The position numbers and the translations under genes are program-made. From NCBI RefSeq assembly GCF_023055435.1, contig NW_025964223.1, positions 1,922,001 through 1,986,000 of the forward strand: 64,000 nt of DNA, given 5' to 3'. This stretch comes from Haliotis rufescens. Taxonomy: Eukaryota. Below, one piece after another: positions 11,442 through 62,992 of this stretch (the stretch's first letter is position 1; each line of letters begins with the position of its first letter). The notes beneath the pieces were generated by a model. The model ran no database searches, had not been told where the DNA came from, and saw only the letters and a program-made list of their open reading frames with translations.

Positions 11442-11461
11442 ATAGATTCTATAGCAATTAC

Positions 11462-16348: not shown

Positions 16349-16380
<32 letters not shown>

Positions 16381-22338: not shown

Positions 22339-22363
22339 GTGTACTTCCCAGTGGTGATTCCCC
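22339..22363. promoter_or_regulatory. Paired kB/Rel-like sites upstream of gene B
   Basis: gtgtacttccc-agt-ggtgattcccc; same spacing as the pair upstream of C and D. Confidence 0.45.
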
Positions 22364-27525: not shown

Positions 27526-28957
27526 AGCTAATGCACTTTTTGCGAATGTCCGATGCAATTCCCTATCTTGACTTAAACCATATGTTTTTTTAGGTGAACA
27601 ATGAACTTATATTTGTATGTGTTTGTGACACTTGCCACCGGTGGGCAGGATACGATCACCTTTTCGCGAACACCTAGTATCATCACTGTTTGATAGTGAT
27701 TCATAAACACATGCTCATGATATAGTCGGAATTCCTTTTTCATATTCAAATGACACTACCTTGCTTGTTTTCGGCGGCTAGGAGTTTGGACAATGTTGTC
27801 AGTTTCACTGACTTCTTATCAATCATTCATGACTTTGTGTGATGGCAATTAGGTGACTTACATTGAGAGGTATGGGTTCGAATCCTGAATGGGACTCAAC
27901 CTATAAAAGTACTAGAATTTGTATTAAGAACCTGTTATCCCAAATAGAACATATGTTACATTTGACCACTTTCTAAAAGGCATGGGATATTCACATCACT
28001 CAAGGACTATGGAATCTAACACTGTGACCAGAGATGGGTAGCAACTCGAAAATCCTGTCTCCAGGATGGAAATTTCTTTTTTTAATTTTTTTTTTTATCA
28101 TAGGTTCTCAATGATAACCTTATAATTCCCTGGTTACACCAACATTCTGCAGAAATCTAGTTCGGATAGTAGACACATAGTCTAATAAATATAAATCTGA
28201 TTGTCATTAAGCCATTGTCCTTTCACATGCTCAATGGGACTGAGCCCTAATAGTTCTTGAACTGACACTGCAAACAACAGCAACAACAAATGCCTTCCTA
28301 CTCCTTTTCAGTTTCAAAGGAAAACCATTTTATGAGTCTGATCTTTCAAATGCACCTTCTGACCCAGGGTGATATTTAAAGCATTAGATTTGACCTGTCT
28401 AACATGACCTGCTGAAACAACCCTGACGTGAAGTCCTTGATCAGACGTATCTACTTAGGGTTAACCAACAATGGAGAGAAAAAACTTGATCTAAGCCTTA
28501 ACGTTAGCTGGCGTAACATTTGATCTCACTGGAATATTGACCCGACTGAAGGGCTCTCCAAAAGCTGGCTAGACAGAGGCAAGGCAAGCGGGAATTGTCT
28601 GATGAGGTTTTCCTACCGCCTGAAATTTGAAACATCCTGAGGGGAAGCAGAATGAGTCTCAACATAAACAACCAGTAATGGTGACTAACCAATTTGAGGG
28701 TATAAACAATAATCACAAAACAGGCAGTAGTTATAAAGAGAATTTTGTATAACCTCGTCAAAAGTATAGCACCACCAAGATATTTTGATAATCAGAAAAG
28801 ACATGGGTAAGAAGAAGCTGGAAAGCGAGACATAAGCAATGAAAAGTGTTACTTAATGTCAAATAAGATGGTGATTTTATGACAAATAGGAAAAAACAGC
28901 ATTTGCAAAGAAAAATAACAACTTCATTCATTAGTAACTACAAGGACTGTAATTGGG

Positions 28958-30502
28958 GATCATTAGAGTCAGTATAAGTATGGTAACAGTCAGGAATGAG
29001 ATGGACAGATCCTTAGAGTCAGTATAAGTATGGTAACAGTCAAGAATGAGGTGGACAGATCATTAGAGTCAGTATAAGTATGGTAACAGTCAGGAATGAG
29101 GTGGACAGATCATTAGAGTCAGTATAAGTATGGTAACAGTCAGGAATGAGGTGGACAGATCATTAGTGTCAGTATAAGTATGGTAACAGTCAGGAATGAG
29201 GTGGACAGATCATTAGAGTCAGTATAAGTATGGTAACAGTCAGGAATGAGATGGACAGATCATTAGAGTCAGTATAAGTATGGTAACAGTCAGGAATGAG
29301 ATGGACAGATCATTAGTGTCAGTATAAGTATGGTAACAGTCAGGAATGAGGTGGACAGATCATTAGAGTCAGTATAAGTGTGGTAACAGTCAGGAATGAG
29401 GTGGACAGATCATTAGAGTCAGTATAAGTATGGTAACAGTCAGGAATGAGGTGGACAGATCATTAGAGTCAGTATAAGTATGGTAACAGTCAGGAATGAG
29501 GTGGACAAATCATTAGAGTCAGTATAAGTATGGTAACAGTCAGGAATGAGATGGACAGATCATAAGAGTCAGTATAAGTATGGTAACAATCGGGAATGAG
29601 GTGGACAGATCATTAGAGTCAGTATAAGTATGGTAACAGTCAGAAATGAGATGGACAGATCATTAAAGTCAGTATAAGTATGGTAACAGTCAGGAATGAG
29701 ATGGACAGATCATTAGAGTCAGTATAAGTATGGTAACAGTCAGGAATGAGGTGGACAGATCATTAGAGTCAGTAAAAGTATGGTAACAGTCAGGAATGAG
29801 ATGGACAGATCATTAGAGTCAGTATAAGTATGGTAACAGTCAGGAATGAGGTGGACAGATCATTAGAGTCAGTATAAGTATGGTTACAGTCAGGAATGAG
29901 ATGGACAGATCATTAGAGTCAGTATAAGTATGGTAACAGTCAGGAATGAGATGGACAGATCATTAGAGTCAGTATAAGTATGGTAACAGTCAGGAATGAG
30001 ATGGACAGATCATTAGAGTCAGTATAAGTATGGTAACAGTCAGGAATGAGGTGGACAGATCATTAGAGTCAGTATAAGTATCGTAACAGTCAGTAATGAG
30101 GTGGACAGATCATTAGAGTCAGTAAAAGTATGGTAACAGTCAGGAATGAGATGGACAGATCATTAGAGTCAGTATAAGTATGGTAACAGTCAGGAATGAG
30201 GTGGACAGATCATTAGAGTCAGTATAAGTATGGTAACAGTCAGGAATGAGGTGGACAGATCATTAGAGTCAGTATAAGTATGGTAACAGTCAGGAATGAG
30301 GTGGACAGATCATTAGTGTCAGTATAAGTATGGTAACAGTCAGGAATGAGGTGGACAGATCATTAGAGTCAGTATAAGTATGGTAACAGTCAGGAATGAG
30401 ATGGACAGATCATTAGAGTCAGTATAAGTATGGTAACAGTCAGGAATGAGATGGACAGATCATTAGTGTCAGTATAAGTATGGTAACAGTCAGGAATGAG
30501 AT
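28958..30502. repeat. 50-bp minisatellite (~31 units)
   Basis: Unit gatcattagagtcagtataagtatggtaacagtcaggaatgaggtggaca. Confidence 0.97.
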
Positions 30503-30564
30503 CCACACATACATGTGTCACATACATGTTAACCATGTCACAGTTAAATGATCAACAGTGTAAG

Positions 30565-30676
30565 TCAATACCTGGTGTAGCCACCCCGTACACGGATCAC
30601 ATCCGCAAAATGCCTCCTCGAGTCTCCACATCTGACGCAGGATCCTCCACTGAGGGATGTGATGCCATTCCTGAAT
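30565..30676 (-). mobile_element. Tc1 transposase C-terminal remnant
   Basis: QEWHHIPQWRIL... / ...DVIRVRGGYTRY*, the typical Tc1 C-terminus; paralogous to 38998-39095. Confidence 0.75.
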
Positions 30677-31168
30677 AACGCGTCTGTAAGTATCCTACAT
30701 AGTCCATGTTGTAGGCAGTGTCTGATTCACCCATTAAAACTTTCTCTTATGCATAGATATATTCACCACGTCCATAAATAACATCTAAATTCATTGGCTG
30801 TTGAAATAATAAAGTGAACTTATGGGTTTGACAGTCTTTCCTCATTTGATTGGGTCAGAGACGAATATAAGACGTCAGTGCCAGAGAACAACCAGTCTCG
30901 ATTATCCGCGGAAACATGTTCCATTGGGCGCAAAAGGCAAAATAGATGTGAAAATTAGTGATGACATCAGGCGAAAAGGGTAGGCATGTCCAACCCTATC
31001 AGTATAACACACACACACACACACCTTCCTATGGTTCGGAAATATTGGGTTTTGCAGAGGCTAAAGCGTTTGAATCCGTATATTTTTCGCTCGTAAAAGA
31101 TTTCTTGGTGTTAAACATAGTACGTCTAACATAATGGTTTGTGGTGAATGCGGTCGCAAGCCCTTGTA

Positions 31169-31323
31169 NNNNNNNNNNNNNNNNNNNNNNNNNNNNNNNN
31201 NNNNNNNNNNNNNNNNNNNNNNNNNNNNNNNNNNNNNNNNNNNNNNNNNNNNNNNNNNNNNNNNNNNNNNNNNNNNNNNNNNNNNNNNNNNNNNNNNNNN
31301 NNNNNNNNNNNNNNNNNNNNNNN
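31169..31323. other. Assembly gap (155 N) followed by a CA-rich microsatellite (31324-31518)
   Basis: Run of N. Confidence 0.99.
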
Positions 31324-31797
31324 NGACACACACACACTCACTCACTGACACACACACACACTGACACACGAACACTCACTGACACACACACACTCACTGA
31401 CACACACACTCACTGACACACACACACTCACTCACTGACACACACACACTCACTCACTGACACACACACACACTCACTCACTGACACACACACACACTGA
31501 CACACAGACACACACACAAAATTTGCATAAAAAACGTAAGTGTTTGTTGTCTGACACACTGCAGCAGTACTGCGATGCGACGGCGGCCTGTAAACCAGCC
31601 AGACAATCAAGTGATGGGCCATAACATCCACACACGATAAGGCAGGAACCGTAGCCTACATTTCAATACAACTCACAGATATTTGACTGGCCCCAAACAG
31701 GAAAGGTATGATCCATAACAGTCGTCCTTCTAAATCTCACACACAAAGGGTTCCAACACGACAAAACAGAGTTGAAAGGGGGTTTTACGTCGCGTTT

Positions 31798-31851
<54 letters not shown>

Positions 31852-33374
31852 TGTCATGTATGTTTTACTTTACAAGACATTTTAAAATTTAAATAAGAGT
31901 ATATAACATAGTTGCTTTGGAGCATGTTGGAAAAGACCACCCTTCAAGGACCTCTGGACTGAAGCTGATCCGGGTGGGCTGCTTTTGTCATTTGTATTTT
32001 TATGGTGACGTCAACCAAGGTTCAGTTCAATTTTACTGACTAGTGTACGTTGCATGTTTTTAAGATTATTTCGCTGATCCACATACATATGTGTGGCTGC
32101 TTGTACTTGTTCAGACATATTCTGGTTCACTATACTGACTCAGACACATAATACTGATTCTGAGCCGGCCAGTCCTTGTTTAATCCCCATAATGCCTTGC
32201 GCTAGGCAGGGTAACAACAAGTATCATATTTTGACGTCTTTTGGTATGACGCGGACAGGGAATCGAACCGTGGAGGTTCCTCTGTCCACTACCCCACGGA
32301 GGTGGTCGCAGTTCACAGGAGTTGATCGTGTCAGAAAGCAGGATAGAAGCCAGAGTCTTGTGTTCCTTTAAGAAATTGACTCTTGGGTTTAGTCATCTGT
32401 TCATTACACACCCAAACAATAAATAACTGCACGGCTAAAAAATATTAATTTATTAAAAAACGATGTCATAAGAACAACATGAACAAGTATAAACGTTTTG
32501 GCTTGATAATATCACAAAATGAGGAAATACGTGTACAAAATAGATTCATACAAAAATATTCATGGCTATGATCACGTGATAAGAGATGAATATAAATAGA
32601 AACATTATGGTGAAGCATGTTAAATCTCAACGTGTAATTGCTATGCGATCATGATAACATAGGATTTAGTTGTGCAGTCGATCAATAAAGATTGCACTAA
32701 TGCAAGTACTTAACTAACACAATCATGACAAACATTATTCCACACGGAATCAGTGTATAACTTACAAATATCACCGATTTAGTCCTTTGTTCATTACACA
32801 CCTAAAGGATAAATAACTGAAGGATTAAAAAAATAATTTCATCCAAAAAACACCCTATGACAACAACCATCAACTAGTATAACAGATTTGACATGGAAAT
32901 ATCACAAAATGTAGAAATATGAGTACATATTAAATAGAATTAAACACAAAATATGTATGGCAATGATCACGATGATAAGAGATAAATATAGGCAGAAACA
33001 ATTCTGAAGCCTACGGTTATACTATCAGTCAGATTCATTCAAATAAGATTAAAGTAACACAACACATATTACAAATAGCACATATAGAAGGCATATAATT
33101 CAGTTGGCATTCACAAAAGGCATTTGTTCTGTCATTAAGAGAATGAAAGCCCTTCCATATTCAAAAGAAGTCTCTGCAAAAAGAGGCGTCGACCGTAAGA
33201 ATCAGACTCTATCACGAGTTTGTGTTTATGAAGCACTATCAAATAGTGATGATACCAGGTGTTTATGAATCACTATCAAATACCAGGTGTTCTCCAAAAA
33301 TGGTTAGCGTGATGTCATACAAGCATATAACCTCATTTCAAGTCACCCCTTGTATGCAACTCATCATGTTCGGG

Positions 33375-34153
33375 TTAAGGGTCAAAGCTGCAGTCTGGAC
33401 AGTCAAGCTTCTTAGGAATTCCCTCCTTCTTGCTGCGTCCCCTCCCCCGGACACGGACATGTTTAAAATACACCTTGTCCTCCCCACACTTGTCCATCAA
33501 GCCCCTGATGTCGACATCCTCCGTGTACAGAAACTCCACATGGAACTTGTTGACAGACACCATCGTGAACGTCTTCGGAACATCTTTCTGTCTGGACATG
33601 GAACTTCTCGAGTATCCTCTAAGAATGTCTTCAATTTTTCGTGAGCATGATACAAACTGTGACATGAGTGTGGTGTCTTCTCTGACAGTGAAAAATGGGT
33701 TGAGGTGCAAATCCAGTTCAGGAAGCCTCCCCTCACTGAATCTGTCTTCAGCTGATCCCATCTTTGTGACCACAACTGTGACGTAATGTGTTTCCTTGTG
33801 ACAGTAAAAGTCTGAGAAGTACATCCTGGTGTCTGATGTGAACAGTTCCTCCACCGGGATGAAAAGACGTCTGTTTCCGAAGAAGGAGAAGTTCGGTATT
33901 TTCTTTTTGTTCTTTGATCCGCTGAAGAAGAGGCCATTGATTTTGTTGTTGATTGGACAATATGGGTCGCCATTGTTGTCCTTCAGGTACTTCTCCATCA
34001 CTCCAGCTCTGTTGGACATGATGTTATCATAGTAGGACTCAGGTTTGTTGCGGTAGAACTTCGTAACATTATATCTGCCTGGAGTTTGCAGGTTCTTGGA
34101 ACAAAAGGTCTTTGCTTTGTCCAGAAGCTGCTGGAGATCTGCCTTAGTATTGC
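33375..34153 (-). CDS. PHYHIPL: PHYHIP-like gene C, terminal exon (PHYHIP C-terminal domain)
   Basis: ttacag|GC AAT ACT AAG. 779 nt; FYRNK, YLKDNNGDP, GLFFSGS, YFSDFYCHKETHY, HVEFLYTEDVD, CPDC. Reconstructed gene about 494-497 aa. Confidence 0.93.
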
Positions 34154-34387
34154 CTGTAAACAAGGGAGGAAAGGGGAATATTCAAAATAAACGTTAACTT
34201 TATGTATATTCACGTGACATATTCACAGGCAGGTATACAGTGAAATCTTTTTAATCATTGACATTTGACGACTTGAGCCGATTCTAGAACACACAACAAC
34301 CTTTTCCTCTCTTTCCTCACCAAAACACAGTTGAAAGTGGAGTTTAAACTCACTTATTGTTGACAAATGAAAGCAAAGTCAACTTAC

Positions 34388-34697
34388 ATGTCTTGACAGT
34401 GATGGTGTCTGATCCACCAGTTGGTGTGTAGTCCTGACACACAGCTGACCGTTGTCCAGTTTGGTCCACACTGGAACCTGTGAGTCCCACGACCTTGACC
34501 TTGTAGTTGGTCCTGGACCGACAGACAGGCAGGAGTGGGATGCTGGCGCTGACCGGGGCAGACGACATCACAACGTACTCCTTCTGACTTCTCTCACAGA
34601 ACACAACACACAGACCTGCCTCGCTGTCAGAAGGTCCTGTAGGCTTGAGGCTGTAGTCCAGTGGTGGCTTGTGCTCAACCTCCATCTCAAGTCGATC
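34388..34697 (-). CDS. PHYHIPL: PHYHIP-like gene C, second FN3-like exon
   Basis: ttcag|GAT CGA CTT GAG ATG...AAG ACA T|gtaagt; 310 nt. Confidence 0.87.
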
Positions 34698-34982
34698 CTG
34701 AAAATGATATTTTGTCATCAAAATGAAGGGTCTTCAATTTCTCAAACAAAGTTTGATAATTTCATATCCTGATAAAATACAGAATACCAAAGAAAAATAA
34801 TCTCAATTAGTTTCCTTTAATGTGAGTCAAAACAGGGATATCCAATTAAAACTAAAATACATGTGTGTATCTATTCAGAACGTAAAGTAAAACTACATGT
34901 TTTTAAATGCTTCTCGTCAGACTCTATGTGGCTGGACAACACAGACAGAACAAACGGCAAGACACGAGGACTCCTCACTCAC

Positions 34983-35047
34983 CTGAGTCTCCCCCAACAG
35001 GTGCATCACGTGACCAAGTGAGGAGAACCCACAACTCAAGTCCAACT
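34983..35047 (-). CDS. PHYHIPL: PHYHIP-like gene C, linker exon
   Basis: ttcacag|AG TTG GAC...ACT CAG|gtgagt. 65 nt, phase 1/0, encodes (E)LDLSCGFSSLGHVMHLLGETQ. Confidence 0.8.
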
Positions 35048-35856
35048 CTGTGAAACAAAGAGGAAAACATCATTATTATTATTGTTCATACATGTGAAGG
35101 AAATATGCCATGTATATGAACTTGAAATATTTTGCCCAAACATTCGTGTTTCACTGGGCTTCTGATTCAAATATCGGTGCATCTCCAAATGCCATGCACC
35201 ACCCAAGTATCCTAAAGTAAGTTCGAGTGTCTGTACAACAATACAAGGACATCAAAGTGCATGGTGTATGATAGTAGTAAGGGAAATGGCACAATACGTT
35301 TCCTGAAAATATATACAAGGGGTTGAGACATTTTGTAAGATCACATTTGTCATTTGCTTTGATAGACTACATATCCAAAAAACAAAATTGTGTTCATTCC
35401 ATGTATTGTGTCACAGTTTTGCTGTCAGATATGCACAGTAGACCCTCACAAGACCGGACCCTGTTAATCCGGTCACATGTCAAGTTGTTGGAGTGGTATA
35501 TATGTATTCAAAGGAACACATGATTCAATAATCAGGAAATTTGTTAATCTAGAATTTCTTTAAACAGTACTGTCATGTTAGAAAATGTTTCATTGTGTAG
35601 TAAAGCTTCAAAACGTAGTGTTCCACCCTGTTCAGTGGGAGGGTGTTTGAGGATCAAATGAAGACATGAAACAGGTTTTCTTCAGTCTAAGTGAAATGTT
35701 CTCAACAGACATACATTTAACCTGAATGAGATTAACATAACATAAATTCACCTAAAATTCTACTGATCAATTATGATTACAAAACAGTTATGACTTATAT
35801 ATAAGAACAGATCACGATTTCTGTATAATTTGTTAAATAAAACAATTTTCCCATAC

Positions 35857-36169
35857 CTTGTGTCTGGTAAGTTGGAGAAATGACAAGTTTGCGAGTTGTT
35901 TCCACAGTATACGATGTTGCCAAGGGGTATCTGTCGCTGCTCTGTCCAGTGTCAATCTTCAGTCCGAACACCTGGACTGTGTCCAGATCCGGGACTGACC
36001 GCTCCATATCATTGCCAGCCTTCAGAACAAACAGGTGCTTGAGTGACCCCCGTCGGTTGTTGACTGCAAGCATCACGTGGGATATATCCTTCCCACACTT
36101 GATGTGTACTCTCAATACTGGACGGGAGTATTTATTTGTTTTCAGCGATATCCACGATTCTGATGAATT
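35857..36169 (-). CDS. PHYHIPL: PHYHIP-like gene C, first FN3-like exon
   Basis: tttcag|AAT TCA TCA GAA (NSSESWISLK...VQVFGL...YTVETTRKLVISPTYQTQ)G|gtatgg; 313 nt. Confidence 0.83.
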
Positions 36170-36776
36170 CTGAAAAAACTAAGAAGCAAAACAAGCATGT
36201 TATTTTTGTCTGAAGTGAGGGTTGGATTAAAATCAGAATCAATACATTTCCTTGCATAATTTTAGATTTTCACTATCTAATGTCTAACTACAAGAATAAA
36301 AGCCAATGAATATATAGCTGATCTGATGCTGTTTAAAACATTTACATGCATTTTCTAATTGAATTCTCAGGTGGTAACATTGTTATTTGATTGCACACAT
36401 ATTGTGACCAGGTAACCTTTTTTATGTTTTGAGAACAATTACGTTGAGGTAAGTACATGAATTATGAACTATAGCGATCACTGTAAACAATACCTGTAAT
36501 TACGAATGTCAAAATGTAACAATATATGTTTGTCTTGACTAATAAAGTGACATTAGACGTGCAGTAACTGGTGAGAAGAAAACCTTGACAGGTAAGAGAC
36601 ACTTAGATACCACGATGCCTGTCAGTCCCTTGAATGCCACTTAAAGAGATTCCAGGTCTATTACAATAAACAATCCAATTTCTGTTAGACAATTATTGAA
36701 ATCCTAACATATTATACTTGATGCACCAACAACATATTTTGATCAGAAGAATGAAAACTGCCCTTACAATGCTTAC

Positions 36777-36794
36777 ACATCTATGTTCTTCCAT
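36777..36794 (-). CDS. PHYHIPL: PHYHIP-like gene C, start micro-exon (MEEHRC; alternative donor gives exon end at 36768)
   Basis: aagATGGAAGAACATAGATGT|gtaagcatt|gtaagg. Both donors are phase 0. TATAAG lies about 40 nt upstream. Confidence 0.6.
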
Positions 36795-36893
36795 CTTGTT
36801 CAGTTGTATTCAATGATGTGAGTTCGTCATAGCTTATATGCACAACCCTGTCACTCCTATTGATAGCCAGGGGATTGCATGTTGGGAAACTGC

Positions 36894-36917
36894 TGGTTTT
36901 CCCAAAGGGGATTCCCC
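36894..36917. promoter_or_regulatory. Paired kB/Rel sites upstream of gene C
   Basis: tggttttccc (GGGAAAACCA on minus) + aaa + GGGGATTCCCC, a canonical kB site, 100-125 nt upstream of the ATG. Confidence 0.6.
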
Positions 36918-37380
36918 TAAAGAAGCTTCTCGTCTGACCTTCATCTTGGCCTGGGAGGTGTTATTGGCGCTATCAGAGGTATTACCTGACACAGGTGACC
37001 AGTGTTAGGATGTGTGTGTGTATTTATATAACATCCGGCTTGTATCTGACCTGTGTATTCAGATATTATTTATCATTGTGGTGTTTAACACTGCAGTCCA
37101 ACCACACATGGACAAACTGCTATCAGCAGGTCATTGTAACCTGGTAATCCCGAACTATTTTTAGAACAAGGTTACAACAGCTGAAAGTTAAATGCACTGC
37201 GCACAAAGAGCTTGCATCGTTTGACTTTATGTGAGTAGAATACCAAGATAGACATTTGTTTAATGTTATAGATACTGCTTGATCTTATGTATATTGAAAT
37301 TGGAATATGTATTTAATAGTTAGAATTTTATTTCAGAATGTCCATAAATTATGAAATCAGTCATTGTTATTTTATGATAA

Positions 37381-38445
37381 GTGGTGGAGACTGGATACAA
37401 CTTGAGCGTATGTGGTGGAGACTGGACACAACTTGAGGGTATGTGGTGGAGACTGGACACAACTTGAGGGTATGTGGTGGAGACTGGACACAACTTGAGG
37501 GTAAGTGGTGGAGACTGGACACAACTTGATGGTATGTGGTGGGGACTGGACACAACTTGAGGGTATGTGGTGGAGACTGGACACAACTTGAGGGTATGTG
37601 GTGGAGACTGAACACAACTTGAGGGTATGTGGTGGGGGTTGGGACTGGACACAACTTGAGGGTTTGTGGTGGGGGTGGGTACTGGACACAACTTGAGGGT
37701 ATGTGGTGGAGACTGGACACAACTTGAGGGTATGTGGTGGAGACTGGACACAACTTGAGAGTATGTGGTGGAGACTGGACACAACTTGAGAGTATATGGT
37801 GGAGACTGGACACAACTTGAGGGTATGTGGTGGAGACTGGACACAACTTGAGGGTAAGTGGTGGAGACTGGACACAACTTGATGGTATGTGGTGGGGACT
37901 GGACACAACTTGAGGGTATGTGGTGGAGACTGGACACAACTTGAGGGTATGTGGTGGAGACTGGACACAACTTGAGGGTATGTGGTGGAGACTGGACACA
38001 ACTTGAGGGTATGTGGTGGAGACTGGATACAACTTGAGGGTATGTGGTGGAGACTGGATACAACTTGAGCGTATGTGGTGGGGACTGGACACAACTTGAG
38101 GGTATGTGGTGGAGACTGGATACAACTTGAGCGTATGTGGTGGAGACTGGATACAACTTGAGGGTATGTGGTGGAGACTGGATACAACTTGAGGGTATGT
38201 GGTGGAGACTGGACACAACTTGAGGGTATGTGGTGGAGACTGGACACAACTTGAGAGTATGTGGTGGAGACTGGATACAACTTGAGCGTATGTGGTGGAG
38301 ACTGGACACAACTTGAGAGTATGTGGTGGAGACTGGACACAACTTGAGAGTATGTGGTGGAGACTGGACACAACTTGAGGGTATGTGGTGGAGACTGGAC
38401 ACAACTTGAGGGTATGTGGTGGGGGTTGGGACCGGACCCAACTTG
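37381..38445. repeat. 31-bp minisatellite upstream of gene C
   Basis: Unit gtggtggagactggacacaacttgagggtat. Confidence 0.97.
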
Positions 38446-38997
38446 AAGGTACGTTGTTAGGACTGGAATGGATCATTGAAATAATGTACTCACACATTTA
38501 ATAATGACACGACTGAAAAAAGCTCTTCAAACGCTGATGTAGGATTGAAAGGGTCAGGAGGAATTATCTGATTAAGTTTTCCTACCACCTGACATGCATG
38601 CCAAAAGTCTCAGAAAACTTGGAAACATCATGACGCAGACTAGTTTTGTGGGAAGCAAAATGAGTCTCCGCATAAACAACTGAAAAGGATAACTAACGAT
38701 GATAAACAACAATCACAAAACATTCAGAAGTTACAAAGAGAATTTTATATACACCTCGTCAAAAGGATCGCACCAAGGTTTTTGATAATCAGAAAAGAGA
38801 TTGGTAAGGAGAAGCTGGAAAGCGAAACTAAAGCAATGAAAACTGTTACTTGATGTCCAATAAGATGTTGATTTTATGACTAATAGGAAACATAAGCATT
38901 TGTAAAGAAAAACAAATTATTCGCAAGCGACTACAAGGACTGTAATTTGGGATCAATACTGGCTGTATAAGTAAGGTAACTGTCCATAATGAGATTG

Positions 38998-40090
38998 TGG
39001 CCACCCTGTACACGGATCACATTCGCAAGACGTTTTACATGCATAACATCAGACCCCTGATCCTCAACTGAGGGATGTGTTGCCATTCTTGATGCAGTGC
39101 CTAAGTCAATTCTTGGAGATTCTGCACTGGAGGGTGCCTGGCACAAAGCCTACCTCCCAACTGATCCCATAGATGATCCGTTAGATTTGGGTCTGGACTT
39201 CGAGAAGGCCAAAGCAGAGTCTCAATGGCGTTGTTCTGGTGATGGTCTGTCTCAGGAAGTGCTCAGTTGGATCGGGCACAGTCGTCCATGAAGACTGGAC
39301 GTGTGGCAAGTGCAAAGTTATCAACATGAGGCACAACAAAACCGTCCAATGTTGTATCTTCACTATCTTGGTACCTTTTCCATTTAATGTCCCCTGAACT
39401 GTGACTAAATCAAGTTTACAACCAAAGGAGCAACAACCCCGTACCATTCCCGAGCCGCCGCCACATGCTACTATTTCCTGGATGTTGCGCTGATGATAAG
39501 ATGTTCCTCTTTGGCTCCAGAGACGAGTCCTGCCATCAGTGCGTGGCTAAACAGTCCCGAATGTATTGGGGTGAGAGTCCAATTGGTCTTCTGATCCTTA
39601 ATCCTGTTTGTATTCATTCGACGCCTGGTGGTACTGAGGGACACTCTGTTGTGGGAAGAACAGTGCAAGTTGAAGTTGGCAGACGTTTTGTCATTTCTGG
39701 CACTAGTCTACCGTAGAAATCCCGATATCGGCCAGTTCCTAACATGTCCAGTCAATGGGTGTTTTTAAATGAGCCGATTGATTACCTTTTCGTTTATGTT
39801 CAACACGGTGGCAATAACTCGACATGATATGCCAGTTTGGTGCACGCCAGTGATTTGCCATCCTAGATTTTCTGGGACGTCATTAAACATGAATTTCTCT
39901 GTAGAGACCCCTAAGGTGTGCAAACGGCTCGCAGAAAGACACTCACAAGGTTGGGCAGTGTAGGAGGCTACCATTATACAGGCAGATGATGTGTCAACAC
40001 TCAGTGTACCATTTGAAAACCTCTACATTGAAAATAAACTCTCATTTACACATCAAACTGGGTGGTGCGATACTTTTGACGAGTTGTGTA
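38998..40090 (-). mobile_element. Degenerate Tc1/mariner transposon
   Basis: WQITGVHQTGISCRVIATVLNIN (HTH), TDGRTRLW...GGGSGMVRGCCSFGCKLDLVTVQGTLNG, VVPHVDN..LATRPVFMDD, ALHQEWQHIPQ...VIRVQGG; TIR-like end acttttgacgagttgtgta. Confidence 0.85.
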
Positions 40091-41026
40091 TATGTTTAAA
40101 CGCTCGTAAAAGTGCAACATTTTACTGCACGTTACTTTAGCTTCACTGAGCTGTCTTAAAGTGTGCATAGCGATAATCCGTGCGTTGATACAAGGTGAAT
40201 ACAGACGTGTGTGTTAAAGAGGGGTTCTCGGAAACAACTCAATCCGCTTGTCAATCACGTTATCATCAGTGGCCTCAGACATGCAATGCCAACTACTGAT
40301 TGACCTTGTCTTGTTCCGTGTGAACTCGTCCTCCTTCTTCATCAAACAACCAAGGCAAAATTCTCTGGAAATGATCTTGCTTAGCTCCAAACTGTAACAA
40401 CATGTCTGTGAGTATTCCACATTGTGTATGTTGTAGGCAGTGTCTAATTCATTCACTAAAACGTTCTCTTATGCATAGATATATTCACCACGTCCATGCA
40501 TAACATTTCAATTCATGGGCTGTTGAAATAATGATGTGAACTGACAGTCTACTCATTTGATTGGGTCGCTGACGAATATAAGACGTCAACACCAGAGGAA
40601 ACCAGACTCGGTTATCCGCGGAAACATATTCCATTGGGCGCAAGAGGCAAAATACATGTGGAAATTAGTCATGACACCAGGCAAAAAGGATAAGCCTACC
40701 GGTATCACAAACACACAATGTGCATAAAAAACGTAAGTATTTGTTGTCTGACACTCTGCAGCAGTACTGCGATGCGACGGCGGCCTGTAAACAAACCATT
40801 CAATCAAGTGATGGACCATAAAATCCACACACGATAAGCCAGGAACCGAAGCCTACATTTCAATACGACTCACAGATATCTGACAATCCCTAACAGGATA
40901 TGTATGAACTATAACACTCGTACGTCTAAATCTCAAACATAAAGAGTTCCAACATGACAAAACTCAACCTGAACTTTTTGATAATGGATGAGGTGAGTTT
41001 GAATGGGGTTTTACGTCACGTTTGGG

Positions 41027-41103
<77 letters not shown>

Positions 41104-43189
41104 ACATAGTTGCTTAGGGGCATGTTGGAAAAGACCACCCTCCAAGGACCTCTGGACTGAAGCTGATCAGGGTGGGTTGCTTTTGTCATTTGTTTTTTTA
41201 TGGTGACATCAACCAAGATTCCGCTGTATTTTACTGACTGGTGTGTGTTGCATGTTTGAGATTATTTCGCTCACCTACATACATGTGTGTGGCTGCTTGC
41301 TTGATGCTGCTTCTGGTTCAGACTCACTATACTGACTCATACACATAATACTGATTCTGAGCCGGCCAGTCCTTGTTTAATCCCCATAATGCCTTGCGCT
41401 AGGCAGGGTAACAACAAGTATCATGTTTTGACGTATTCTGGTATGAAGCGGAGAGGGAATCGAACCGTGGACTTTCCTCTGTCCAGGCAGAGGCTCTGTC
41501 CACTACCCCACGGAGGTGGTCGCAGTTCACAGGAGTTGATCGGAGTTTAAGAAATTGACTCTTGGGTTTAGTCATCTGTTCATTACACACCCAAACAATA
41601 AATAACTGCAGGGCTAACAAAATATTAATTTATTAAAAAACGATGTCATAAGAACAACATGAACAAGTATAAACGTTTTGGCTTGATAATATCACAAAAT
41701 GTAGAAATACGTGTACAAAATAGATTCATACAAAAATATTCATTGCTATGATCACGTGATAAGAGATGAATATAAATAGAAACATTATGGTGAAGCCTAC
41801 GTTAATACTTTGGGCCAGATTTGTTCCAACAAGATTAAAGAAACACAACCCATATTTCAAGTAGCACAAAGCTTGCTGCTACAATCATGAAAATGTCACA
41901 AAATGTAGACATACGAGTATATGTTAAAAGCATAGAAAGCATATACAGAGCTATAATCATGATGATAAGAAATGAATAGAAATAGAAATAATATCGCAAA
42001 GTCTGCTGTAATACTATCAGCAAAATAAAATAAACATATTTGTTCAAACATAACAAATATTTACAACATTGATAACAATGAAAATCATGAAAATATCACA
42101 TGGTGGATTGACAAACGTAACCAACAAACTCGACCGGGAACTATGACGGACACTGTATTAATAGACGTTCTATTTTCAGGCATGTCATAACAGATAAAAA
42201 AGAAACACGGTACACATTATGACTAAAACTGGTGAAGCAATATTACCTTCTTTGATGTGTTTGATACAACTGCCAACACACAATGCGTCATCACATACAG
42301 AAATGGGATATTTATACATAAAACTATTGCACTGAAGAGAGGCATGGAATGGACACAGAAAAAAAACACATGTTAAATCTCAACGTGTAATTGCTATGAG
42401 ATCATGATAACATAGGATTTAGTTGTGCAGTCGATCAATAAAGATTGCACTAATGCAAGTACTTAACTAACACAATCATTACAAACATTATTCCACACGG
42501 AATCAGTGTATAACTTACAAATGTGACACTGGAAGCCAGCACCGATTTAGTCCTTTGTTCATTACACACCTAAAAGATAAATAACTGAAGGATTAAAAAA
42601 AATAATTTCATCCAAAAAACACCCTATGACAACAACCATCAACTAGTATAACAGATTTGACATGGAAATATCACAAAATGTAGAAATATGTGTACATATT
42701 AGATAGAATTAAACACAAAATATGTATGGCAATGATCACGATGATAAGAGATAAATATAGGCAGAAACAATTCTGAAGCCTACGGTTATACTATCAGTCA
42801 GATTCATTCAAATAAGATTAAAGTAACACAACACATATTACAAATAGCACATAGAGGAGGCATATAATTCAGTTGGCATTCACAAAAGGCATTTGTTCTG
42901 TCATTAAGAGAATGAAAGCCCTTCCATATTCAAAAGAAGTCTCTGCTAAAAGAGGCGTCGACCGTAAGAATCAGACTCTATCACGAGTTTGTGTTTATGA
43001 AGCACTATCAAATAGTGACGACACCAGGTGTTTATGAATCACTATCAAATAGTGACGACACCAGGTGTTTATGAATCACTATCAAATAGTGACGATACCA
43101 GGTGTTCTCCAAAAATGGTTAGCGTGATGTCATACAGGCATATAACCTCATTTCATGTCACCCCTTGGATGCAACTCATCATGTTCGGG

Positions 43190-43968
43190 TTAAGGGTCAA
43201 AGCTGCAGTCTGGACAGTCAAGCTTCTTAGGAATTCCCTCCTTCTTGCTGCGTCCCCTCCCACGGACACGGACATGTTTAAAATACACCTTGTCCTCCCC
43301 ACACTTGTCCATCAAGCCCCTGATGTCGACATCCTCCGTGTACAGAAACTCCACATGGAACTTGTTGACAGACACCATCTTGAACGTCTTCGGAACATCT
43401 TTCTGTCTGGACATGGAACTTCTCGAGTATCCTCTAAGAATGTCTTCAACTTTTCGTGAGCATGATACAAACTGTGACATGAGTGTGGGGCCTTCTCTGA
43501 CAGTGAAAAATGGGTTGAGGTGCAAATCCAGTTCAGGAAGCCTCCCCTCACTGAATCTGTCTTCAGCTGATCCCCTCTTTGTGACCACAACTGTGACGTA
43601 ATGTGTTTCCTTGTGACAGTAAAAGTCTGAGAAGTACATCCTGGTGTCTGATGTGAACAGTTCCTCCACCGGGATGAAAAGACGTCTGTTTCCGAAGAAG
43701 GAGAAGTTCGGTATTTTCTTTTTGTTCTTTGATCCGCTGAAGAAGAGGCCATTGATTGTGTTGTTGATTGGACAATATGGGTCGCCATTGTTGTCCTTCA
43801 GGTACTTCTCCATCACTCCAGCTCTGTTGGACATGATGTTATCATAGTAGGACTCAGGTTTGTTGCGGTAGAACCTCGTAACATTATATCTGCCTGGAGT
43901 TTGCAGGTTCTTGGAACAAAAGGTCTTTGCTTTGTCCAGAAGCTGCTGGAGATCTGCCTTAGTATTGC
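43190..43968 (-). CDS. PHYHIPL: PHYHIP-like gene D, terminal exon (PHYHIP C-terminal domain)
   Basis: 779 nt; 8 nt differences from the gene C exon by manual comparison. Confidence 0.93.
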
Positions 43969-44202
43969 CTGTAAACAAGGGAGGAAAGGGGAATATTCAA
44001 AATAAACGTTAACTTTATGTATATTCACGTGACATATTCACAGGCAGGTATACAGTGAAATCTTTTTAATCATTGACATTTGACGACTTGAGCCGATTCT
44101 AGAACACACAACAACCTTTTCCTCTCTTTCCTCACCAAAACACAGTTGAAAGTGGAGTTTAAACTCACTTATTGTTGACAAATGAAAGCAAAGTCAACTT
44201 AC

Positions 44203-44512
44203 ATGTCTTGACAGTGATGGTGTCTGATCCACCAGTTGGTGTGTAGTCCTGACACACAGCTGACCGTTGTCCAGTTTGGTCCACACTGGAACCTGTGAGT
44301 CCCACGACCTTGACCTTGTAGTTGGTCCTGGACCGACAGACAGGCAGGAGTGGGATGCTGGCGCTGACCGGGGCAGACGACATCACAACGTACTCCTTCT
44401 GACTTCTCTCACAGAACACAACACACAGACCTGCCTCGCTGTCAGAAGGTCCTGTAGGCTTGAGGCTGTAGTCCAGTGGTGGCTTGTGTACCACCTCCAT
44501 CTCTAATCGATC
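44203..44512 (-). CDS. PHYHIPL: PHYHIP-like gene D, second FN3-like exon
   Basis: ttcag|GAT CGA TTA GAG ATG...ACA T|gtaagt; 310 nt. Confidence 0.87.
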
Positions 44513-44796
44513 CTGAAATTGACATTTTGTCATCAAAATGAAGGGTCTTCAATTTCTCAAACAAAGTTTGATAATTTCATATCCTGATAAAATACAGAAT
44601 ACCAAAGACAAAATCTCAATTTGTTTCCTTAAATGTGAGTCAAAACAGGGATATCCAATTAAAACTGAAGAATACATGTGTGTATCTATTCAGAACGTAT
44701 AGTAATACTCATGTTTTTAAATGCTTCTCGTCAGACTCTATGTGGCTGGACAACACAGACAGAACAAACGGCAAGACACGAGGACTCCTCACTCAC

Positions 44797-44861
44797 CTGA
44801 GTCTCCCCCAACAGGTGCATCACGTGACCAAGAGAGGAGAACCCACAACTCAAGTCCAACT
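44797..44861 (-). CDS. PHYHIPL: PHYHIP-like gene D, linker exon
   Basis: 65 nt, bounded by AG/GT, near-identical to 34983-35047. Confidence 0.8.
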
Positions 44862-45602
44862 CTGTGAAACAAAGAGGAAAACATTATTATTCTTATTGTT
44901 CATACATGTGAAGGAAATATGCCATGTATATGAACTTGAAATATTTTGCCCAAACATTCGTGTTTCACTGGGCTTCTGATTCAAATATCGGTGCATCTCC
45001 AAATGTCATGCACCACCCAAGTATCCTATAGTAAGTTCGAGTGTCTGTACAACAATACAAGGACATCAAAGGGCATGGTGTATGATATTAGTAAGGGAAA
45101 TGGCACAATACGTTTCCTGAAAATATATACAAGGGGTTGAGACATTTTGTAAGATCACATTTGTCATTTGCTTTGATAGACTACATATCCAAAAAACAAA
45201 ATTGTGTTCATTCCATGTATTGTGTCACAGTTTTGCTGTCAGATATGCACAGTAGACCCTCACAAGACCGGACCCTGTTCATAAATTTGTTAATCTAGAA
45301 TTTCTTTAAAAAGTACTGTCATGTTAGAAAATGTTTCATTGTGTAGTTAAGCTTCAAAACGTAGTGTTCCACCCTGTTCAGTGGGAGGGTGTTTGAGGAT
45401 CAAATGAAGACATGAAACAGGTTTTCTTCAGTCTAAGTGAAATGTTCTCAACAGACATACATTTAACCTGAATGAGATTAACATAACATAAATTCACCTA
45501 AAATTCTACTGATCAATTATGATTACAAAACAGTTATGACTTATATATAAGAACAGATCACGATTTCTGTATAATTTGTTAAATAAAACAATTTTCTCAT
45601 AC

Positions 45603-45915
45603 CTTGTGTCTGGTAAGTTGGAGAGATGACAAGTTTGCGAGTTGTTTCCACAGTATACGATGTTGCAAAGGGGTATCTGTCGCCGCTCTGTCCAGTGTCA
45701 ATCTTCAGTCCGAACACCTGGACTGTGACCAGATCCGGGACTGACCGCTCCATATCCTTGCCAGCCTTCAGAACAAACAGGTGCTTGAGTGACCCCCGTC
45801 GGTTGTTGACTGCAAGCATCACGTGGGATATATCCTTCCCACACTTGATGTGTACACTCAATACTGGACGGGAGTATTTATTTGTTTTCAGTGATATCCA
45901 CGATTCTGATGAATT
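45603..45915 (-). CDS. PHYHIPL: PHYHIP-like gene D, first FN3-like exon
   Basis: 313 nt, bounded by AG/GT, near-identical to 35857-36169. Confidence 0.83.
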
Positions 45916-46521
45916 CTGAAAAAACTAAGAAGACAAAACGAGCATGTTATTTTTGTCTGAAGTGAGGGTTGGATTAAAATCAGAATCAATACATTTCCTT
46001 GCATAATTTTAGATTTTCACTATCTAATGTCTAACTACAAGAATAATAGCCAATGAATATATAGCTGATCTGATGCTGTTTAAAACATTTACATGCATTT
46101 TCTAATTGAATTCTCAGGTGGTAACATTGTTATTTGATTGCACACATATAGTGACCAAGTAACCTGTTTGATGTTTTGAGAACAATTACGTTGAGGTAAG
46201 TACATGAATTGTGAACTATAGCGATCACTGTAAACAATACCTGTAATTACGAGTGTCAAAATGTAACAATATATGTTTGTCTTGACTAATAAAGTGATAT
46301 TAGACGTGCAGTAACTGCTGGGAAGAAAACCTTGAGAGGTAAGACACTTAGATACCACGATGCCTGTCAGTCCCTTGAATGCCACTTAAAGAGATTCCAG
46401 GTCTATTACAATAAACAATCCAATTTCTGTTAGACAATTATTGAAATCCTAACATATTATACTTGATGCACCAACAACATATTTTGATCAGAAGAATGAA
46501 AACTGCCCTTACCATGCTTAC

Positions 46522-46539
46522 ATGTCTATGTTCTTCCAT
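46522..46539 (-). CDS. PHYHIPL: PHYHIP-like gene D, start micro-exon (MEEHRH; alternative donor gives exon end at 46513)
   Basis: aagATGGAAGAACATAGACAT|gtaagcatg|gtaagg. Confidence 0.6.
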
Positions 46540-46638
46540 CTTGTTCAGTAGTATTCAATGATGTGAGTTCGTCATATCTTATATGCACAGCCCTGTCACT
46601 CCTATTGATAGCCAGGGGACTGCAGTGTGGGAAACTGC

Positions 46639-46662
46639 TGGTTTTCCCAAAGGGGATTCCCC
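46639..46662. promoter_or_regulatory. Paired kB/Rel sites upstream of gene D
   Basis: tggttttccc-aaa-ggggattcccc, identical to gene C. Confidence 0.6.
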
Positions 46663-47110
46663 TAAAGAAGCTTCTCGTCTGACCTTCATCTTGGCCTGGG
46701 AGGTGTTATTGGCGCTATCAGACTCATTACCAGACACAGGTGATCAGTGTGTGGATGTGTGTGTGTATTCATATAACATCCGGCTTGTATCTGACGGGTG
46801 TATTCAGATATTATGTATCATTTTGGTGTTTAACACTGCAGTCCAACCACACATGGACAAACTGCTATCAGCAGGTCATTGTAACCTGGTAATCCCGAAC
46901 TAATTTTAGAATAAGGTTACAACAGCTGAAAGTTAAATGCACTGCGCACAAAGAGCTTGCATCGTTTGACTGACGTTGAGTAGGATACCAAGATGTTATA
47001 GATACTGCTTGATCTTGTGTATATTGAAATTGGAATATCTATTTAATAGTTAGAATTTTATTTCAGAATGTCCATAAATTATGAAATCAGTCATTGTTGT
47101 TTTATAATAA

Positions 47111-50100
47111 GTGGTGGGGACTGGATACAATTTGAGGTTATGTGGTGGAGACTGGACACAACTTGAGGGTATGTGGTGGGGACTGGACACAACTTGAGGG
47201 TATGTGGTGGAGACTGGACACAACTTGAGGGTATGTGGTGGAGACTGGACACAACTTGAGAGTATGTGGTGGAGACTGGACACAACTTGAGGGTATGTGG
47301 TGGAGACTGGACACAACTTGAGGGTATGTGGTGGGGACTGGACACAACTTGAGGGTATGTGGTGGAGACTGGACACAACTTGAGGGTATGTGGTGGGGAC
47401 TGGACACAACTTGAGGGTATGTGGAGGGGACTGGACACAAGTTGAGGGTATGTGGTGGGGACTGGACACAACTTGAGGGTATGTGGTGGGGACTGGACAC
47501 AACTTGAGGGTATGTGGAGGGGACTGGACACAGCTTGAGGGTATGTGGTGGGGGTTGGGACTGGACGCAACTTGAGAGTATGTGGTGGAGACTGGACACA
47601 ACTTGAGGGTATGTGGTGGGGACTGGACACAACTTGAGGGTATGTGGTGGGGACTGGACACAACTTGAGGGTATGTGGAGGGGACTGGACACAGCTTGAG
47701 GGTATGTGGTGGGGGTTGGGACTGGACGCAACTTGAGAGTATGTGGTGGAGACTGGACACAACCTGAGGGTATGTGGTGGAGACTGAACACAACTTGAGG
47801 GTATGTGGTGGGGACTGGACACAACTTGAGAGTATGTGGTGGGGACTGGACACAACTTGAGGGTATGTGGTGGGGGTGGGGACTGGACACAACTTGAGGG
47901 TATGTGGTGGAGACTGGACACAACTTGAGGGTATGTGGTGGAGACTGGACACAACTTTAGGGTATGTGGTGGGGACTGGACACAACTTGAGGGTATGCGG
48001 TGATGACTGGACACAGCTTGAGGGTATGCGTTGAGGACTGGACACAACTTGAGGGTATGTGGTGGAGACTGGACACAACTTGAGGGTATGTGGTGGAGAC
48101 TGGACACAACTTGAGGGTATGTGGTGGGGACTGGACACAACTTGAGGGTATGTGGTGGAGACTGGACACAACTTGAGAGTATGTGGTGGAGACTGGACAC
48201 AACTTGAGGGTATGTGGTGGAGACTGGACACAACTTGAGGGTATGTGGTGGGGACTGGACACAACTTGAGGGTATGTGGTGGGGACTGGACACAACTTGA
48301 GGGTATGTGGTGGGGACTGGACACAGCTTGAGGGTATGTGGTGGGGGTTGGGACTGGACGCAACTTGAGAGTATGTGGTGGAGACTGGACACAACTTGAG
48401 GGTATGTGGTGGGGACTGGACACAACTTGAGAGTATGTGGTGGGGACTGGACACAACTTGAGGGTATGTGGTGGGGGTGGGGACTGGACACAACTTGAGA
48501 GTATGTGGTGGAGACTGGACACAACTTGAGGGTATGTGGTGGGGACTGGACACAACTTGAGGGTATGTGGTGGGGACTGGACACAACTTGAGGGAATGTG
48601 GTGGGGACTGGACACAACTTGAGGGTATGCGGTGAGGACTGGACACAGCTTGAGGGTATGCGTTGAGGACTGGACACAACTTGAGAGTATGTGGTGGAGA
48701 CTGGACAATACTTGAGGGTATGTGGTGGAGACTGGACACAACTTGAGAGTATGTGGTGGAGACTGGACACAACTTGAGGGTATGTGGTGGAGACTGGACA
48801 CAACTTGAGGGTATGTGGTGGGGACTGGACACAACTTGAGGGTATGTGGTGGGGACTGGACACAACTTGAGGGTATGTGGTGGGGACTGGACACAGCTTG
48901 AGGGTATGTGGTGGGGACTGGACACAGCTTGAGGGTATGTGGTGGGGACTGGACACAGCTTGAGGGTATGTGGTGGGGGTTGGGACTGGACACAACTTGA
49001 GCGTATGTGGTGGAGACTGGACACAACCTGAGGGTATGTGGTGGAGACTGAACACAACTTGAGGGTATGTGGTGGGGACTGGACACAACTTGAGAGTATG
49101 TGGTGGGGACTGGACACAACTTGAGGGTATGTGGTGGGGGTGGGGACTGGACACAACTTGAGGGTATGTGGTGGAGACTGGACACAACTTGAGGGTATGT
49201 GGTGGAGACTGGACACAACTTGAGGGTATGTGGTGGGGACTGGACACAACTTGAGGGTATGTGGTGGGGACTGGACACAACTTGAGGGTATGTGGTGGGG
49301 ACTGGACACAACTTGAGGGTATGTGGTGGAGACTGGACACAACTTGAGAGTATGTGGTGGAGACTGGACACAACCTGAGGGTATGTGGTGGGGACTGGAC
49401 ACAACTTGAGGGTATGTGGTGGGGACTGGACACAACTTGAGGGTATGTAGTGGGGACTGGACACAACTTGAGGGTATGTGGTGGGGACTGGACACAACTT
49501 GAGGGTATGTGGTGGGGGTTGGGACTGGACACAACTTGAGAGTATGTGGTGGAGACTGGACACAACTTGAGGGTATGTGGTGGGGACTGGACACAGCTTG
49601 AGGGTATGTGGTGGGGGTTGGGACTGGACACAACTTGAGGGTATGTGGTGGGGACTGGACACAACTTGAGGGTATGTGGTGGGGACTGGACACAACTTGA
49701 GGGTATGCGGTGAGGACTGGACACAACTTGAGGGTATGTGGTGGAGACTGGACACAACTTGAGAGTATGTGGTGGAGACTGGACACAACTTGAGGGTATG
49801 TGGTGGGGACTGGACACAGCTTGAGGGTATGTGGTGGGGGTTGGGACTGGACACAACTTGAGGGTATGTGGTGGGGACTGGACACACCTGTGTATGGGGA
49901 GGGTGGGGGTGGAGGGGGTGGGGGTGGACTGGACACACCTGTGTATGGGGAGGGTGGGGGTGGAGGGGGGGTGGACTGGACATACCTGTGTATGGGGAGG
50001 GTGGGGGTGGAGGGGGGGTGGACTGGACACACCTGTGTATGGGGAGGGTGGGGGTGGAGGGGGGGTGGACTGGACACACCTGTGTATGGGGAGGGTGGGG

Positions 50101-50190
50101 GTGGAGGGGGGGTGGACTGGACACACCTGTGTATGGGGAGGGTTGGGGTGGGGACTGGACACACCTGTGTATTGGGAGGGTGGGGGTAGT
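47111..50190. repeat. 31-bp minisatellite upstream of gene D, grading into a ~47-bp G-rich unit (49880-50190)
   Basis: Same unit as 37381-38445; terminal unit tggactggacacacctgtgtatggggagggtgggggtggaggggggg. Confidence 0.97.
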
Positions 50191-53100
50191 TTAATGCTGC
50201 ACGCTGCAATGTTCCATGTATACGAGTCTGGGAAGATGACCCAGTGTTTGAGCACCGATCCACCTTACCAGGTACATTTACACGCTACCAACCAAGTCAC
50301 TCATCCAAACCATTCGATTCATTAAGTTTTCTCCTACGACACGCATTTCTTACTTGGGACAAATTCCATCCTGGAATTAGAACTATGTCTATCAGTACAT
50401 CAAAATGCGCAATAGACTTCTTAAATTAGTTGTTACAATGCTATTACACAAAGAATGAGAGAATTCACAATTGACATGTTAGATTCAGTAGTTACATATC
50501 AAGCATCTATCACACTATCAGTGACACATTCTGAATGGTTTGAAATTAAGTACATCTTTAAATGTGTCATAGTATTAATATTCTTAATAGTGTTTCGTGA
50601 ACTTTTTTTAACCTGCGATGGTGTATTTATATTTCCATTTCAGTTATTATCGACAAGTTCAAATAGTTTTTAAAATGACAACAAATTATCCCTATACGGT
50701 TGTTCTTGCCAACTTCAATTCCTTAATGCTGTTGCCTTGCAAAGTCTGTCGCAGCAGATTCGCCCTGATTATGTTCCTAGATAAGTCAGCACAATATATA
50801 CCCGTAAAGTTGATTGCTTTCTTAATAAGCGCACTCGTGGGTTTCACCAAAGTGATAAACGTTGGAGACCTGCATCCTGTTAAAAGCGGCGTTTAACCCA
50901 CTTTCAGGCAAGGGCGTTAACTCACTATGGATGTCCAGTTTCCATATTGCCGAATTAGGATGGAATTCCTGATTTACGTTTTGGTTAGACTAACGAGTCT
51001 ATGCATAGTCCAATCAAAATCGCCTTGTCAATCAAATTCCAGCCTCGTTCGGCGAGGGTGGAAAATGGACTTTTATAGTCAACGCCATTGCTCGTGAAAT
51101 TGCGTTAAACCCAACACACGCACACTGTCAGAGTTTGTTTGTTTGTTGTTTAACGCCGAAATCAGCAATATTCCAGCTATTTGACGGCGCCCTTAAAAAT
51201 TATCGAGTCTGGACCAGACAATCCAGTGATTGACATCATGAGCATTGATCCACGCAATTTGGATACAATGACATGCATCAACCAAGTCAGCGAGCCTGAC
51301 CACCCGATCCCGTTGGTCGCCTTTTATGGGAAGCATGAATTGCTGAAGTACCTATTCTACCCCGGATCTTCACGGGTCCAATGTCAGAGAAACAGTTACA
51401 TACTCATATCCACAAACAGCATAGATAACTGTTTCATATTTATGAAGCATTTATTCCATTTTGTTGATGTCTTTTTAATCATGTTTTGTTTATATTTTTG
51501 GGTTTCAGGTAACAGTTGCTTGGATGAAAGAAGATGCCACAGAAATAATTCCATGTTTTTTATCTTATTCCAGACACAAAATTACTGCTTATTATTTTTC
51601 TGTGAAAGAAAAAGCGGACAATTTGTTATATTTTTGCACAAATATTTTGTTCCGGAAATCCAGTGACAAGTACTTTTCCTTTTTTTATGGTAAAACAAAC
51701 TTAATCGTTACAAGTATTATCTGCAACAAATTATTAATTTAAAAAAACTCCCAATATTTTCCCCTTCAGACGGGAGATAATCTTCATCAACAACATACAT
51801 TTTGGCAGTCATCAGGAGGTGTGGTGAGGTGAAATTGGGTTTAACGTCGCGTCCAAGATTATTGCACTTATATAGGGATGCGCATGCACGTGTATGTGTG
51901 TGTGTTGCTGCTTGTACTAGTCCGGACTGATGCTGATTAATAGTGCAAGCCCACTGAGATACCATGCCGCAGTTTAACATGAGTACCCCACTCAGACACA
52001 GTATGCCGAGTCCTAGCCGACTAGTCCCTGCTTTATCCCCTTAACACCAAGCGCCAGGCAGGGTAACAACAAGTACCATATATTAACGTCTTTAGGTATG
52101 ACTCGGACTGTGATCGACTGTGATCTACCACTACCAGGGAGGCGGTCTCATCAGGATGTGTTGCTGTGTCTCTGAGCTTGGAGGAAGGATGGACATGTTG
52201 GTGACATGTCGGTGATGATAGATCCGGTTGGAGTATTCTGTCACAAGGACATCAAGTGACATGTCACAGCAAGGTTGTTTGTTTGGTTGGTTGGTTGTTT
52301 AATGCGGCACTCAGCAAAATTCCAACTATGTATAACTTCAAGCACAATATACTGCACATGAGCACAACACAAATTATTTTTTTATGGATAGAAAAATAAA
52401 TGCAACAAAAAATCTTATTTTCTTGTGCTGTATTTTACAGTTTGTTGTCCAGCTCAAACTTAACCACAAAACCAATTTTCACAAACGTTAAAATATAAAA
52501 TTTTGAATACCAATTTGGTTGAATTCTGCTACATCGAGTTACTATATAGCCTCTCTAGATCCTGAACAATATTAGTTTCCCTTCTGCCCAGCCCTAACTG
52601 TATTGCTATAGCCCTGAAGTCTCCACAGATTCACTCCCATCTCACTGGGGTTCTTTCTTTCTAAATGTAATTGTTGTTTCTATCAAAATAATTTATTTTC
52701 AGAGACTAAGTGAGTATGGTTTTACGCTGCTTTTAGCAATATCACGTTGGGGACACCAGAAATGGGCTTCACACATTGTACCCATGTCGGGAATCGAACC
52801 CGGGTCTTTGGGGTGACGAGCGAACGCTTTAAACTAGGCTACCCGACCGCCCCCTTCAGAGACTAAGGGTTTGTCTAAGTTACTATCATGTTGTTATATT
52901 CCATAACTAAAATTCAATGCTTTTGTTATCTCACAGAATTAATCAGTTTAACAATGATTGAACTTCTGATAAAATTCACACCTCATCTCATTCAGTAAGC
53001 CGTTTTTATAGTCCTGACAGGTTTCATAATGGTTAATAATAGAATGCTCTTTGGCCATGTTGGCAACACTCCCGTGTGAGTTATCTCCCTTACCTCTGCC

Positions 53101-62680: not shown

Positions 62681-62992
<312 letters not shown>

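Follow-up and report, generated by a model that had tools for sequence, protein, structure and literature searches.

A candidate Rel/NF-kB site cassette in the proximal promoters of PHYHIP-like genes of Haliotis rufescens

Three PHYHIP-like genes of the abalone Haliotis rufescens, called here B, C and D, carry a short cassette of kB-type sites in their proximal promoters. The shared block is real and inherited. At a confidence just short of even, we favour the reading that this cassette is an inherited proximal promoter module which likely binds Rel/NF-kB dimers and switches the three genes on in immune signalling.

Gene cluster and architecture of the cassette

In the window, i.e. the whole 64-kb stretch of DNA that was analysed, genes A, B, C and D are all located on the minus strand. 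Gene A (LOC124115312) is present in part at the left end. Gene B (LOC124115306; 17091-22178) begins with an exon 1 encoding MENH and contains a PHYHIP_C domain, gene C (LOC124115310; 33375-36794) has five coding exons, the coding part of exon 1 (36768-36794) specifying MEEHRCVSI, and a C-terminal PHYHIP_C domain (PF19281), and gene D (LOC124115309; 43190-46539) is a tandem copy nearly identical to C. Exons 4 and 5 of B show 100% identity to Haliotis rufescens LOC124115306, and 500 of the 503 residues of C and D, read exon by exon, matched LOC124115310 and LOC124115309. The last exons of B and C resemble PHYHIP/PHYHIPL, with PHYHIP_C matches of 103.8 and 107.7 bits (curated cut-off 27); the abalone genes differ from this family by their tandem expansion and their rapidly evolving N-terminal exons, in which paralog types share 32-39% identity.

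The tandem unit of C and D measures about 9.8 kb (28642-38467 versus 38650-48197) and is 94-96% identical over gene and promoter and 77-83% downstream. A long minisatellite with a unit of about 30 nt (37370-38450 and 47100-50200) starts about 450 nt upstream of the two kB sites in each gene and reaches about 1.1 kb in C and 3 kb in D. H. cracherodii also has two copies, which pair with each other in an exon-5 tree; concerted evolution or separate duplications may account for the two pairs. Exon 4 of gene A (538-757) is 95-98% identical to that of C and D (34481-34700 and 44296-44506) over about 210 nt, with 37/40 and 39/41 fourfold sites identical, unlike exon 2, where identity is only about 51%; this pattern points to recent gene conversion between old paralogs. 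Upstream of the cluster, an exon of arginyl-tRNA-protein transferase (ATE_C, 37.6 bits) was found at 62678-62992 (minus).

On the coding strand, C and D both read GGGGAATCCCC-TTT-GGGAAAACCA from 123 to 100 nt above the ATG. An earlier note had reported this pair, as TGGTTTTCCC-AAA-GGGGATTCCCC, above the ATG and a TATA-like box, and it is indeed present at 36894-36917 in C and, with the same letters, at 46639-46662 in D (both minus). Site 1 of gene C, GGGGAATCCCC (36907-36917, minus), has no mismatch to the canonical NF-kB/Rel consensus GGGRNWYYCC on either strand, in agreement with its description as a canonical kB site. Site 2, GGGAAAACCA (36894-36903, minus), stands head-to-tail with it, about 14 nt apart. 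A third kB-like site, GGGAAACTGC (36884-36893, plus; one mismatch), which the note had not listed, faces site 2; gene B retains just its GAAAC. Below the sites follow an ATCAAT box (36859-36864, minus), found in the same order in B, C and D but weak evidence alone because the minus strand of the window holds 19 copies, and the TATA-like block TGTGCATATA (36835-36844, minus), followed by AG. The corresponding block of D is located at 46580-46589 (minus). In both genes 45 nt separate the start of the TATA-like box from the ATG, and the sites stand 55-80 nt above the box. The C/D sites are kB sites as good as sequence alone can give. The gene C cassette (36870-36917) is moreover an imperfect inverted repeat, with 19/32 positions matching its own reverse strand, which yields four inward-facing kB-like words. 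A 51-nt stretch folds at z -2.4 (4/200 shuffles), but a hairpin reading was rejected since the palindromic sites account for the fold.

In gene B the coding strand reads GGGGAATCACC-ACT-GGGAAGTACA, 185 to 162 nt above the ATG. The string reported for 22339-22363 is present, but its second half is no consensus kB site. Site 1, GGGGAATCACC (22353-22363, minus), matches the kB consensus with one mismatch, whereas site 2, GGGAAGTACA, fits none of four consensus patterns at up to one mismatch, so that the tandem pair does not extend to B and a match of both sites to a Rel consensus in each independent lineage breaks at this site. The remaining cassette (22332-22352, minus) consists of GGGAA, one half of site 2, and GAAAC, all that is left of site 3; gene B retains about one and a half sites. 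The changes between B and C spare the G-rich halves (GGGGAATC, 8/8 identical; GGGAA, 5/5 identical) and affect 2/3 spacer positions, 3/5 positions in the 3' half of site 2 and a single position of site 1. The TATA-like block of B (22238-22247, minus) is followed by CC, giving a weaker TATA; it starts 64 nt above the ATG, with the sites about 100-120 nt above it.

A single perfect kB 10-mer, GGGAAATTCC, was found at 12286-12295 (minus), with no start exon attached. The sequence reported for 12285-12295 therefore exists, but its placement upstream of the gene A start exon found no support. A broken exon-2 fragment of a further paralog (9975-10217, minus; LOC124115314-like, with stops and frame changes) lies between the site and gene A, and a search of 3700-17000 with exon patterns and sliding alignment did not reveal a start exon or homologous promoter of A (best score 22.6, versus 28.8 for B-C). 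On the coding strand, moreover, the TATAAATA of this region occurs upstream of the site. For these reasons the site is not tied to gene A. A 43-nt block of the same region (12451-12493) is repeated in inverted orientation above gene B (22479-22437; 81%, E 1.8e-7) and holds AANTGAAACC, presumably an IRF-like half-site; the DNA around 12 kb may be what is left of a rearranged promoter.

The proximal-promoter position of the C/D sites is supported by a spliced RNA contig and by the RefSeq models, which start at the ATGs of B, C and D. In the contig, from run X15, the end of exon 1 is joined to exon 2, with the D letters at 5/5 listed differences. The cassette has a TATA-like box and a spliced exon 1 below it; the contigs mark splicing, not transcription start. 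An N-terminal extension of the H. asinina protein model aligns without gaps to 21 codons above the C ATG, TATA region included, so that the spacing within the core promoter seems to be kept. Both the H. asinina and the H. rubra model begin above the second ATG, and the H. asinina one crosses the TATA-like box; this may reflect an overrun of the annotation or point to a start further up. The segment 36795-36857 (minus) is in frame with both 5' extensions, and a further ATG at 36830, closed by a stop in the same frame, could form a uORF provided that it is transcribed. Four of 24 listed runs were compared with the window. Among them, the DNA run X6 spans the C promoter from 36769 to 37226 with no listed difference, and is too close to the window to inform on conservation. 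Three RNA-type runs, a label guessed by the program, gave no contig over 36769-37300; since exon 1 itself was missed too, this gap says nothing on the start site. A metagenome scan returned, among 114 candidate stretches, two distant loci, short, with 32-34% identity and one ORF each.

Descent of the cassette and its conservation

The promoters had been described as otherwise unalignable. This does not hold for their proximal parts: TGTGCATATA and ATCAAT follow one another in the same way in B and C, and the two promoters align above the null in 8/8 scoring schemes (p 0.0005-0.044, against real-sequence and shuffled nulls, with bounds set post hoc, after the cassette had been seen). The window contains five copies of TGTGCATATA with its TATA-like box, three of them above the B, C and D ATGs and the other two in a tandem repeat on the opposite strand. 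Fixed 330-nt windows of B and C gave no significant alignment (p 0.088), nor did 330-nt local alignment with the pair masked (p 0.77), a 20-nt ungapped probe of the TATA region (11/20) or the DNA further upstream (p 0.31). When the 24-nt pair of C, defined from the consensus alone, was compared with B, 18/24 positions were identical, a score that none of 125,554 other positions attained; the block is therefore homologous. It extends without gaps to 32 nt (23/32) and is the best non-self match on both strands.

C and D are 95-100% identical throughout, leaving B versus C/D as the sole independent comparison. With 584/616 identical promoter positions (introns, 97-100%), C and D count as one observation, and their unchanged 24-nt pair means little because 201 nt hold just 10 differences. 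The split between B and C is old, since in a tree of 17 rows, where Mytilus, Pecten and Gigantopelta sit on long branches, the C-type genes from four species, among them H. rubra and H. asinina, form a starred clade with B outside.

The neutral expectation was taken from fourfold-degenerate sites, of which 10/22, 18/30 and 33/62 are identical between B and C in separate exons (pooled 61/114), so that neutral identity is still about 50%. Against the pooled rate, 18/24 gives p 0.026, with a range of 0.003-0.096 by exon, the upper value being obtained at the exon-4 rate of 0.60. The cassette would thus exceed neutral identity by a modest margin, and that selection rather than descent alone has kept it is less clear. 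A minority but serious weight is given to the possibility that the promoters are simply homologous, the cassette being their least-eroded stretch and the perfect kB site of C and D a product of chance. The excess varies with the exon used, the cassette boundaries were set after inspection, and an old conversion tract could yield the block because the paralogs exchange DNA, as exon 4 of A versus C/D illustrates. Opposed to such neutral survival are the gapless 32 nt, the changes that avoid the G-rich halves, and the adjoining intron 1, which is unalignable between B and C (p 0.61; p 0.02 under one cheap-gap scheme).

Chance expectation bears on the same alternative from both sides. The scan against a shuffled background that the earlier note had proposed gave no enrichment of GGGRNNYYCC: nine matches were counted versus a shuffle mean of 6.17, and 23/100 shuffles reached nine. 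Perfect GGGRNWYYCC sites number three in 64 kb, two of them being the C and D copies, and such a site appears in 1.0% of 100,000 simulated 200-nt stretches. A perfect site with another perfect 9- or 10-mer no more than 25 nt away, the second motif having been picked after the site was seen, arose in 1/100,000, a rarity that speaks against a purely neutral origin. ISRE-type patterns were neither enriched in the window nor present at C or D. Of the phylogenetic footprint of NF-kB control that had been proposed, what stands is a homologous block with a site in proximal-promoter position; it rests on one comparison, in which site 2 of B is degenerate and the excess modest.

Candidate factors acting on the cassette

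If the favoured Rel/NF-kB reading is correct, the common ancestor of the PHYHIP-like genes B, C and D would have passed on the proximal promoter module. One Rel dimer would occupy site 1 of each gene; C and D would take up another on site 2, some 14 nt further on, and perhaps one more on the facing site, gene B being a weaker, one-site version. Activation of the pathway releases Rel from IkB, and the freed Rel would drive transcription, which would begin about 25-30 nt downstream of the TATA box. The HIV-1 LTR pair is a tandem kB enhancer, likewise with two head-to-tail sites about 14 nt apart near a TATA box; the C/D sites differ from it in being of different types and in having a third site that faces them. 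GGGGATTCCCC is also the p50-type site of the MHC class I enhancer.

Molluscs possess Rel- and p50/p105-type genes (PMC11432056), and in EMSA the Rel protein of a pearl oyster binds promoter DNA used as a probe (PMC4497715). The Nacrein promoter, bound by Pf-Rel in that study, is also a mollusc promoter with predicted kB sites; it differs in belonging to a shell-matrix gene, in having scattered single sites and in having been studied experimentally, whereas the abalone cassette, in this comparison as in those with the HIV-1 pair and the canonical consensus, is known from its letters.

The expression data at hand run against simple induction. In the hepatopancreas of H. diversicolor, 12 h after Vibrio harveyi, 5/5 transcripts annotated as PHYHIP-like fall in down-regulated clusters (PMC8290317, supplement 2; see also the review PMC12943528). 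This count comes from a shared-DEG table of one DEG group, from which a sixth "phytanoyl" row, a PhyH enzyme, was dropped, and the transcripts are not assignable to B, C or D because they come without sequence. We consider it improbable that Rel binds but represses, with p50-type homodimers, or Rel and a co-repressor, holding the genes down or lowering them on infection. The 5/5 decrease would suit such repression, as would GGGGATTCCCC, a p50-homodimer site, and site 2 of C and D, whose 9-nt core is identical to GGGAAAACC, the Dorsal motif of Drosophila zen; this is a repressor motif of a developmental silencer in the fly, and an A at position 6 marks repressor motifs (PMC3239199). The position-6 rule however comes from the fly and may not carry over to molluscs, and site 1 reads as activator type on one strand and as repressor type on the other. 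The C/D motif differs from that of zen in having a perfect kB site next to it and a TATA box below, and its counterpart in B is degenerate. The H. diversicolor data themselves cover one tissue at one time and show more decreases than increases overall (803 versus 289 in L12).

It seems equally improbable that another factor uses the conserved letters, CSL/Su(H) acting on the TGGGAA kept in B, C and D, Schnurri/HIVEP on GGGGATTCCCC, or NFAT5. TGGGAA is exactly what B retains of site 2, and D has TGTGGGAA at site 3; paired Su(H) sites, however, are spaced by 15-17 nt, versus about 10 nt between the facing TGGGAA words of C, and it is the complete kB 11-mer that is best preserved. Overall, the inherited block and the textbook kB site of C and D lend partial support to the NF-kB reading of the earlier note, which is held back by the single independent comparison, the reduced site set of B, the modest conservation excess and the decreased expression in H. 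diversicolor.

The PHYHIP-like products

The C-terminal domain of the product is predicted to adopt a divergent ADP-ribosyltransferase-like fold, with DarT, Tpt1/KptA, PARP, scabin and CC0527 among the nearest known systems. In the putative R-S-E or H-Y-E triad, R and E are found in 60/60 sequences, on strands, and S in 19/19 in A1 and 23/60 in A2, spatial closeness aside. A search of the ESM Atlas returned mixed, unrelated families, and a search of the open-access literature retrieved no paper that connects PHYHIP genes with immunity in molluscs or with an ADP-ribosyltransferase fold. It is a rather unlikely but consequential proposal that the abalone cluster comprises Rel/NF-kB-controlled, duplicating and converting immune effectors with an unrecognised ADP-ribosyltransferase-fold, NAD-using C-terminal domain.

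As a kB site the cassette is ordinary; it offers a clean candidate for direct control by Rel in abalone, and the natural pair of strong (C, D) and weak (B) promoters suits a reporter comparison. The promoters of B, C and D are likely tied to immune signalling, an ordinary kind of control, and the cassette matters more for the genes it would control. The PHYHIP family is poorly understood and without known chemistry. If immune control and the fold both hold, they would provide a testable enzyme hypothesis for this family, and the proposal, if true, would give the first biochemical activity for the PHYHIP family as a whole, including PHYHIP and PHYHIPL of humans.
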